From Eubacteriales bacterium (lineage in GTDB: Bacteria; Bacillota; Clostridia; Oscillospirales; JAAYXM01): a stretch of DNA of 64,000 bases. The translations under genes were made by a program, and so were the position numbers. The number at the start of each line of letters is the position of its first letter. Positions within the stretch are counted from its first letter, which is position 1. A model generated the notes under the pieces. The model saw only the letters and a list, made by a program, of their open reading frames with translations, searched no databases and was not told where the DNA came from. Positions 55,201 through 55,873 of this stretch are shown here, piece by piece. The stretch spans positions 4,713 to 68,712 of the forward strand of contig JAZNAQ010000011.1 of NCBI GenBank assembly GCA_045586595.1, in the 5' to 3' direction.

Positions 55201-55873
55201 GGTTGTATGTGACCATCTCTCGCCTAAAGCGTTGCTTGATAAGGTTCGCTTCTTGTGCAAGGGTAAAACAGAACCAATTCCGGAATTATACAAAGAATTT
55301 AACAAAGAGACCAACGACGGAAAGAACATGACGGGGCTGTCAAAACTTCTTGGTGATGCCATTGCATCTATTATCGAAGTTAAGGAAGAAAGCGATATCA
55401 ACAGCTTCCTTTCTGGTGGTCAGGTAAGCTTCTTATCGAATGAAACAAAGGGACTGGACGACTTCGAGCTCATTTGCTTTATCGTTGTAAGAGATACAGA
55501 GTTGAAGCCTGCTACAGCGCGAGATTTCCGTGTAGTTGTTGCCGGAAGTAGAAACTTTAACGATTATAACCGCTTGTCAGATGCCCTTGATAAATACCTT
55601 GCCGATAAGGACAATGTAACAATAGTCAGCGGCACTGCACGCGGCGCCGACAGAATGGGAGAGCGCTATGCCGCAGAGCATGGACTCAAAATTGAGCAAT
55701 TCCCTGCAGAATGGGGTAAGTATCATAAAGGCGCAGGACCGATAAGGAATATGCAGATGGTACAAAGCGCCGATGCAGTAGTTGCATTCTGGGATAATGA
55801 ATCAACCGGAACAAAGCACATCATTGACTGCGCAAGACAAGAAAATATTCCCTGTAAGGTAATCAGTATTTAA
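52262..55873 (+). CDS. SNF2-family helicase with an unassigned ~250-aa N-terminal region and a C-terminal SLOG (DUF2493/YspA-like) domain
   Basis: SNF2 motifs [36 protein letters not shown] and [34 protein letters not shown]. The last 118 aa (nt 55517-55870) read [11 protein letters not shown]...[16 protein letters not shown]...[30 protein letters not shown], a DUF2493-type SLOG pattern. ATG at 52262 lies 9 nt after GGAG. Confidence 0.85.
   Translation: [1203 protein letters not shown]

Follow-up and report, generated by a model that had tools for sequence, protein, structure and literature searches.

A YAcAr-family SLOG domain fused to the C-terminus of an SNF2 translocase in a Type III restriction-modification operon

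Introduction

SLOG proteins of the YAcAr family (DUF2493) are found as free proteins in phages, plasmids and giant viruses, including relatives of mycobacteriophage D29 gp61 and Bacillus phage proteins annotated 'ssDNA binding protein' (ssDNA, single-stranded DNA). Here we examine a member of this family that forms instead the C-terminal module of a 1205-amino acid (aa) SNF2 protein, encoded in a 64,000-nucleotide (nt) stretch of a Eubacteriales bacterium (assembly GCA_045586595.1, contig JAZNAQ010000011.1, positions 4,713 to 68,712 of the forward strand). We refer to this whole stretch as the window and give coordinates within it. By profile, motifs and fold, the standalone proteins and the window domain belong to one family, with identities of 41–53% in alignment and up to about 56% among full-length representatives.

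The closest architectural precedent is HelB of Vibrio phage ICP1, published as a superfamily 1B (SF1B), Dda-like accessory helicase with a C-terminal DUF2493. In both proteins a DNA motor is followed by a C-terminal YAcAr domain: HelB has 561 aa, and its last ~116 aa are 45.7% identical to the window SLOG. HelB is an unwinding helicase that assists replication of a lytic phage, whereas the window protein is a superfamily 2 SNF2 translocase within a restriction-modification operon. The role of the DUF2493 domain was outside the scope of the HelB publication.

Two better-characterized groups share the fold. DprA and ShosA, the latter the DprA-like antitoxin of the ShosTA defence system, bind ssDNA (PMC12961424, PMC11961720) and have in common with the window SLOG the motifs G-S/T-R, SGxAxGxD, RN and S-G-[ST], and a profile alignment tentatively pairs two ssDNA-contact arginines with residues of the window SLOG; the latter lacks the SAM domain, the C-terminal domain and about half of the extended sheet, and has no phosphoribosyltransferase (PRTase) toxin partner. 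Thoeris ThsA (SIR2-SLOG) resembles the window protein in that a SLOG domain is fused to an effector domain, but the ThsA SLOG senses a TIR-made cyclic ADP-ribose (cADPR) isomer and controls an NADase, whereas the window SLOG is joined to a DNA motor. A conserved TIR partner of the Thoeris kind is absent; a weak match to TIR or nucleoside 2-deoxyribosyltransferase (NDT) proteins occurs only in the window and in one related locus (L086).

At the level of the operon, the locus is reminiscent of the accessory helicases of DNA-modification defence loci (PADLOC HKD+Snf2; compare DISARM DrmD and BREX BrxH), and its SNF2 lies beside a methyltransferase and a restriction helicase-nuclease. Pfam and PADLOC identified no DrmA, DrmB, DrmC or Brx genes in the window operon, and the host protein is neither a DrmD nor half of a Thoeris-type pair. 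The eukaryotic SNF2 fork remodellers HLTF/Rad5, with HIRAN, and SMARCAL1, with HARP, each carry a reader of ssDNA or DNA ends. Their design follows the logic of the mechanism proposed below, in which an appended module that reads ssDNA or junctions would target a double-stranded DNA translocase. These offer the closest functional analogy, and an analogy only; their reader domains are unrelated and their biology is different.

YAcAr/DUF2493 is a very large family for which published predictions are limited to NAD+/cADPR chemistry. No description of an SNF2–SLOG fusion was found in the searchable literature, which excluded the family-defining paper of Burroughs et al. 2015 (Nucleic Acids Research), and a paper on polyvalent proteins makes no mention of SLOG. 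An initial annotation of the window, made from the sequence alone, was aware of no description of the architecture. This holds insofar as no paper on SNF2–SLOG was found; it does not extend to database entries, which carry the protein as 'helicase-related protein', nor to the published C-terminal DUF2493 of HelB. The fusion sits unremarked in public databases, and is unsurprising to a specialist in defence-system domain architectures.

Results and discussion

SNF2 and SLOG are encoded by one continuous open reading frame

The fusion gene and its parts are as follows.

52256..55873, forward strand: SNF2–SLOG fusion open reading frame (ORF), 1205 aa from GTG 52256 (ORF list, raw sequence).
52256..52945, forward strand: N-terminal family-specific domain, aa 1–230; tentatively a PLD-superfamily fold (AlphaFold2 and Foldseek).
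52985..54739, forward strand: SNF2 ATPase core, with lobe 1 at aa 244–411, lobe 2 (Helicase_C) at aa 695–828 and a long insertion between them (Pfam SNF2-rel_dom, ResIII, Helicase_C).
54740..55492, forward strand: family-specific C-terminal region; its end, ...[14 protein letters not shown] (aa 1079), is where members of the family canonically terminate.
55493..55525, forward strand: linker from the SNF2 end to SLOG, [11 protein letters not shown], 11 aa in length (DNA junction alignment).
55526..55873, forward strand: YAcAr/DUF2493 SLOG domain, aa 1091–1205, and stop codon (PF10686, alignment, AlphaFold2, Foldseek).

In both the ORF list and the raw sequence, the frame of the fusion gene is unbroken, with neither a stop nor a frame change ahead of the tail, and the translation of 55517–55870 reads [14 protein letters not shown]...CKVISI (aa 1088–1205). 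The true start is likely ATG 52262, because GGAG lies 8 nt upstream and homologues start MEI(I/L)NN; residue numbers are counted here from GTG 52256 and are 2 too high if ATG 52262 is the start.

A search of 5.8 billion proteins recovered the fusion in at least 120 protein clusters, 77–91% identical over their full length, each with PF10686 and drawn from ENA, Logan, JGI and NCBI assemblies. All are 1198–1209 aa long except one 1141-aa fragment. One cluster is the RefSeq 'helicase-related protein' of Flavonifractor plautii, present on 24 contigs. A distant copy with the same architecture is encoded in a metagenome-assembled genome (MAG) of Acutalibacteraceae (L002), with 75% identity in the core and 58% in the tail, and the continuous ORF is also seen in loci L081–L088. 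The window protein itself had no recorded entry in an exact-sequence look-up. The representative protein library hides the fusion: the two best YAcAr representatives in it (P0121, P0122) are C-terminal fragments of fusion proteins, and the library is unusable for counting fusions.

These data bear on the possibility that the tail is a separate gene joined by sequencing or assembly error, or a neutral remnant in decay. The tail is absent in most family members and has diverged more quickly than the core (across 121 fused tails, identity to the window averages 72%, versus 83% in the core), as a passenger might. Against this, the motif residues are invariant across the same 121 tails. The occurrence of the same continuous ORF in independent assemblies, and in the divergent L002, removes the frameshift or assembly objection. 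We regard an artefact or decaying passenger as almost certainly excluded by these observations. SNF2 and SLOG thus lie in one protein, with no separate downstream gene, as first annotated. The fusion is genuine and conserved, and amounts to a modest variation on known parts rather than a system of a new kind.

The tail belongs to the YAcAr family

Pfam assigns aa 1092–1156 to PF10686, YAcAr ('YspA, cpYpsA-related SLOG family', formerly DUF2493), with an E-value of 1.1e-19 and 70.5 bits in the full protein and of 3.4e-21 and 75.3 bits for the 118-aa segment alone (cut-off 28.2). The fused copy contains the SLOG motifs AGSR, SGxARGAD, AGPIRN and FWDxxSxGT. In a 60-sequence alignment that includes 59 standalone members, it keeps all 7 invariant and 17 near-invariant columns; the kept residues comprise G1097, R1099, G1126, G1130, D1132, G1161, R1164, N1165, M1168, FWD1178–1180, S1183, G1185 and T1186.

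AlphaFold2 models the domain as five alternating strand-helix units in a Rossmannoid arrangement (pLDDT 96.6). Foldseek searches of the PDB with this model matched ShosA, DprA, ThsA-SLOG and LOG at probability 1.00, with TMq values of 0.68 for ShosA (8zva), 0.61–0.71 for DprA (4ljk, 3uqz, 5mll, 3maj), 0.59–0.64 for the ThsA SLOG (7uxs, 6lhx, 8btp) and 0.60–0.65 for LOG (5wq3, 1wek). The predicted fold is closest to ShosA/DprA, followed by ThsA-SLOG and LOG. Viral DUF2493/YAcAr models matched at TMq 0.8–0.92, the top viral match being a 561-aa protein, the length of HelB. At the sequence level, the 127-aa tail matched nothing in the PDB, and a profile search returned weak matches to DprA. The tail is therefore a PF10686 member by profile, motif and fold alike. 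The DUF2493-type SLOG called in the initial annotation is upheld both by the Pfam run that it had suggested and by comparison of the model with solved structures, among which DprA and LOG are neighbours.

The presence of LOG structures among these neighbours raises the alternative that SLOG is an enzyme, either a LOG-like N-glycosidase or an NAD+/ADP-ribose-processing activity, working beside the helicase on an immune signal, a nucleotide or a modified base. Such an activity accords with published predictions that SLOGs of the YAcAr and viral YpsA-like kinds use NAD+ or degrade cADPR-type signals (PMC7824862, PMC9503650). It also fits the conservation of two acidic residues, D1132 and D1180, which vary little or not at all in the family. 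LOG enzymes carry the motif PGGxGTxxE. The motif is not kept in the tail, which reads SxGTKHI and has no Glu at the LOG position; moreover, the closest folds, DprA and ShosA, are non-catalytic binders, and no experimental function or enzymology for any YAcAr member was found in the searchable literature. We consider an enzymatic role distinctly unlikely.

The family at large is dominated by small proteins. A phmmer search of 1.84 billion representatives (50% identity) gave 23,746 YAcAr relatives at E ≤ 1e-3, and the best 150 representatives are mostly 113–300 aa long. The domain was detected in 1060 phage records (of 50,697) and in 45 plasmid records (of 72,556), under annotations that vary among DUF2493, SLOG family, DprA-like and 'ssDNA binding'. 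That the domain is usually a small standalone protein, as stated at the outset, is borne out by these lengths and records. Other architectures are seen in P0123, P0124 and P0240, namely tandem SLOG, Lcl_C + YAcAr and DUF4326 + YAcAr; the tandem double-SLOG protein P0123, of 271 aa, is among the closest YAcAr relatives. Several proteins of 384–734 aa have YAcAr at the N-terminus, followed by regions without a Pfam match.

The host protein is an SNF2 translocase with a putative PLD fold

Both SNF2 lobes score above their Pfam cut-offs (PF00176, SNF2-rel_dom, E 7.8e-12, aa 248–411; PF00271, Helicase_C, E 6.5e-16, aa 695–828), in agreement with the earlier reading of a SNF2 core upstream of the tail. 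PADLOC model C3a139, 'HKD+Snf2', matches end to end (E 1.1e-127; aa 3–1078 against profile positions 2–947 of 948) and stops where SLOG starts. Models for DrmD, BrxH, ZorD and similar proteins match the motor only, far below their family cut-offs; the DrmD equivalog NF038317, for example, reaches 156.8 bits where 610 are required.

Pfam returned no match to the N-terminal ~230 aa, even at E 10, and none to the C-terminal region at 54740..55492. The AlphaFold2 model of the N-terminal domain is of moderate quality (pLDDT 63, with four of the five models below 48). Its Foldseek matches are consistently to PLD-fold proteins, comprising SauUSI, NgoAVII, PLD3, NucT, Zucchini and BfiI (TMq 0.37–0.46), and we tentatively assign the domain to the PLD superfamily on the basis of this model. 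In a conserved block, GTEFExKLRN, a Glu takes the place of the catalytic His of PLD enzymes. The catalytic motif HxK(x)4D is absent, and no conserved His was present in alignments of 85 and 60 sequences. The domain is probably an inactive, DNA-binding PLD fold, to judge from the model, and the SNF2 protein is probably no nuclease itself because the conserved catalytic His is lacking. The gene encodes an SNF2 DNA translocase with a putative PLD fold, which belongs to the PADLOC HKD+Snf2 family but lacks the HKD histidine.

The SLOG tail is a rare accessory

Loci of SNF2 relatives were collected by a scan of one genome per species, and the best 80 of at least 599 were examined. In 78 of the 80, SNF2 stops 1–25 codons past the residue aligned to aa 1078, the canonical end reading ...[11 protein letters not shown][KR]. 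L002 is the sole tail bearer among them. One locus, L076, had been reported to match residues 7–1202 and was rejected as a fusion: its SNF2 stops, an overlapping DUF4391-like ORF comes next, and there is no SLOG. In the viral contigs of IMG/VR, none of 15 relatives of the SNF2 C-terminal region has the tail.

Alignment of the DNA junctions reveals an in-frame cassette of ~380 nt, bounded exactly by the last canonical codon on one side and by the GGAGG that precedes the DUF4391 gene on the other. The linker has the lowest pLDDT of the model (about 81) and is poorly conserved among the 121 fused tails. A neighbour-joining tree of the core groups all SLOG-bearing proteins in a single clade, with the SLOG-less L001, L003–L010 and L043 interleaved. 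The pattern implies a gain with later losses, or exchange. Neither GC nor GC at third codon positions (GC3) gives any sign that the cassette was imported recently: its GC of 0.463 is inside the range of 378-nt core windows (maximum 0.466), and its GC3 is not distinctive either. SLOG is a rare accessory of this SNF2 family, most members of which work without it.

SLOG domains have been joined to DNA motors repeatedly

The wider search for SNF2–SLOG fusions that the initial annotation had proposed returned, besides the at least 120 clusters, L002 and L081–L088 with YAcAr, a second type with YpsA. Scanning all fetched loci with SLOG profiles identified a Desulfovibrionaceae MAG (L056, 9482–13243; CAYJFE010000003.1) in which a member of the SNF2 family carries an N-terminal YpsA SLOG (PF06908, E 2.4e-23). 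This fusion is a single 1253-aa ORF with a canonical C-terminus and with DUF4391, Mod and Res downstream. Four cluster fragments (P0271–P0274) also encode YpsA and then the SNF2 N-domain in one ORF. By sequence, YpsA–SNF2 is an independent fusion, involving a different SLOG family at the opposite end of the motor. Two loci hold what appear to be degraded forms, L090 (1407–5161) with YpsA–SNF2 apparently split into three ORFs, and L089 (784–1731) with an apparent truncated YpsA–SNF2 remnant.

Together with HelB, SLOG has been joined to DNA motors at least three times, as C-terminal YAcAr on SNF2, N-terminal YpsA on SNF2 and C-terminal YAcAr on HelB. Two other family members, P0307 and P0309, carry an N-terminal ASCH domain. 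ASCH is a nucleic-acid-binding fold. The termini of the SNF2 motor seem to collect small modules that read nucleic acids or nucleotides. Such recurrent joining offers a concrete, cheap and tractable test of whether YAcAr domains act on DNA.

Possible functions of the SLOG tail

We tentatively propose that the SLOG tail is a DprA-like reader that binds ssDNA or a nucleotide and targets or gates the SNF2 translocase, a reading that we hold to be possible, somewhat short of probable. The SLOG domain would bind a nucleotide unit, most likely within ssDNA, and, being tethered, would recruit or gate the double-stranded DNA translocase at DNA that exposes single strands. Candidate substrates are gaps, forks, and entering conjugative or replicating phage DNA. 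SLOG would then be an optional add-on that tunes substrate choice from outside the core of the system, as most SNF2 family members work without it. If it merely fine-tunes that choice, the outcome is a useful annotation and nothing beyond.

The proposal is based on the rank order of fold neighbours, on two conserved arginines and on the repeated joining of SLOG to motors. HpDprA contacts ssDNA through R52, R143 and R170 (PMC12961424). A profile alignment, with an inferred residue offset, places R52 and R143 opposite R1099 and R1164, which are invariant in the family; the ShosA equivalents of R52 and R143 are required for binding (PMC12961424). The initial annotation had suggested that ssDNA or ligand sensing could be coupled to translocation; this has become more plausible with the two further helicase–SLOG fusions.

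Several observations weigh against a DprA-like reader. The third HpDprA contact, R170, aligns with an Asp in the window SLOG, and the second segment of the HpDprA alignment scores 2.5 bits, weak on sequence alone. The DprA profile PF02481 matches at 19.0 and 25.0 bits, below its cut-off of 29.6, and covers profile positions 46–98 of 212. With ~115 aa downstream of the SNF2 end, the SLOG is limited to a Rossmann core of about that length, without the SAM or C-terminal domains of DprA, and the Foldseek alignments cover 24–42% of DprA chains. The tail is accordingly not a DprA, its profile score being below threshold and its architecture incomplete. Phosphate-binding loops of the same kind serve free nucleotides in ThsA and LOG (TMq 0.59–0.65), and the group that defined the family predicts NAD+/cADPR-type substrates for viral YpsA-like SLOGs (PMC7824862, PMC9503650). 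From their sequence pattern, the near-invariant D1132, W1153, W1179 and D1180 resemble a defined site for a small ligand more than a groove that binds DNA generically.

The likeness to ShosA and DprA also admits a role in recruitment or dimerization, in which SLOG dimerizes and/or binds RecA, and so pairs two SNF2 motors or brings in recombination proteins. ShosA forms a homodimer that binds RecA directly, and DprA loads RecA (PMC12961424, PMC4066776); the natural tandem SLOG of P0123 likewise suggests paired working. The residues conserved in the tail are, however, those of the nucleotide-binding loops, and we consider this role improbable.

The ThsA neighbours point in another direction, to a SLOG that acts as a messenger receptor, binding a free nucleotide signal and switching the SNF2 motor allosterically or by oligomerization. 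Possible sources of the signal are the invader, another system of the host, or an enzyme encoded by cargo nearby. Sensing by SLOG is established in Thoeris (see PMC7272460 and the titles of the ThsA structure entries), and the ThsA SLOG binds 3'cADPR. The ThsA structures are significant fold neighbours of the tail, and the YAcAr family has a tightly conserved Asp/Trp/Arg pocket. Conversely, ShosA and DprA rank above ThsA in the fold comparison, and the repeated attachment of SLOG to DNA motors, one of them an accessory helicase of phage replication, better fits a role on the DNA side. On these grounds and on those of gene content given below, we judge a messenger receptor unlikely.

The restriction operon and its cargo slots

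The genes around the fusion are as follows.

48573–51832, upstream of the operon: mobile-element genes of plasmid or conjugative-element type, encoding the replication initiator RepA_N, ParB, TnpV and two NikA-like ribbon-helix-helix proteins.
52001..52204, forward strand: Cro/C1-type helix-turn-helix (HTH) protein, 67 aa, directly upstream of SNF2 (Pfam HTH_26, E 4e-20).
55892..56497, forward strand: DUF4391 protein, 201 aa (PF14335, E 1.3e-32), with a ribosome-binding site GGAGG directly past the SLOG stop.
56503..59086, forward strand: cargo slot 1, with three proteins of 284, 401 and 171 aa without assigned function, the last of them hydrophobic and probably a membrane protein.
59099..61105, forward strand: Type III Mod methyltransferase, 668 aa (PADLOC MTase_III, E 2.7e-216; Pfam N6_N4_Mtase).
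61105..62082, forward strand: cargo slot 2, a protein of 325 aa whose C-terminal domain is NDT/TIR-like (weak profile matches).
62100..64000, forward strand: Type III Res endonuclease/helicase, running off the window end (PADLOC REase_III, E 6e-211; NCBIfam PRK15483).

Mod and Res lie in one operon, as in Type III restriction-modification, and full-length Res with RE_endonuc is encoded in L081–L087. DUF4391, Mod and Res follow SNF2 in that order in 50 of the 51 loci, among the best 80, with 9 kb or more of sequence downstream. The resulting four-gene set of PLD-fold/SNF2 (the first gene), DUF4391, Type III Mod and Type III Res is widespread and is found in Bacillota, Bacteroidota, Spirochaetota, Desulfovibrionaceae and a Methanoregula MAG, and DUF4391 is the constant partner of the SNF2 family. 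No paper on DUF4391 or on the four-gene set was found in the searchable literature. The fusion thereby draws attention to a very common, little-studied set of genes that hosts other defence genes.

The DUF4391/Mod and Mod/Res gaps can be considered cargo slots because their sizes vary from 4–15 nt to 2.7–6 kb; across related loci, slot 1 measures between 15 nt and 6 kb. In the window, the slot 1 genes have no significant Pfam, PADLOC or NCBIfam match. In L081–L084, which represent an element of F. plautii that also carries the conjugation genes VirD4, VirB4, TrbL, PrgI and NlpC/P60, slot 1 holds SIR2_2 and a DUF87 (HerA-like) ATPase (L081, 14268–17722). The 325-aa protein of slot 2 scores 28.8 bits with PF05014, exactly at the cut-off, and matches PADLOC 'Effector TIR' at E 6.7e-6; a 99% identical copy is present in L086, and the other loci of L081–L088 hold unrelated genes in this slot. 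GC3 is 0.29–0.30 for the slot 1 genes and 0.23–0.30 for the window cargo overall, as against 0.36–0.46 for the scaffold genes. The restriction operon looks like a landing pad for other defence genes.

This cargo bears on the messenger receptor. The TIR/NDT-like protein of the window and L086 and the SIR2_2 of L081–L084 are NAD+-related and could be sources of a signal. Against this, no signal producer is common to the SLOG-bearing loci, and L087 and L088 have neither TIR/NDT-like nor SIR2_2 cargo. A more specific version, in which a messenger such as a cADPR isomer or NAD+ product, made by the TIR/NDT-like or SIR2 cargo or by the invader, switches the translocase and so licenses or boosts Type III restriction, is in our view very doubtful. 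If true, this would be the first case of an SNF2 motor gated by a messenger, and would wire nested defence systems directly to the restriction-modification scaffold. The DNA-side reader proposed above calls for no particular partner, and comparison of L002 with L081–L088 revealed no gene common to SLOG-bearing loci beyond the four-gene core.

Turning to the margins of the operon, neither an integrase nor a relaxase was seen in the stretch examined of this gut-bacterial mobile element, the right end of which is beyond the window. The HTH protein is likely the operon regulator; its gene is also upstream in L001, L007, L012, L081–L084 and others. A promoter-like site at 51921–51950 (TTGACT-18-TATAAT) has 11 of 12 matches, in a setting where counts of promoter and terminator sites are not above those of shuffled sequences. 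In L002 (8679–9203) and L081 (8582–9043; the same in L082–L084), a separate gene for a YpsA-family SLOG precedes the SLOG-tailed SNF2 by ~1 kb; none was found in the window or within 10 kb of the 77 SLOG-less loci. The C-terminal tail of DUF4391 is charged and possibly a coiled coil. The four-gene set in the Methanoregula MAG (L058; CAYVTY010000003.1) is archaeal and has 64% SNF2 identity, which suggests inter-domain transfer, or contamination of the bin.

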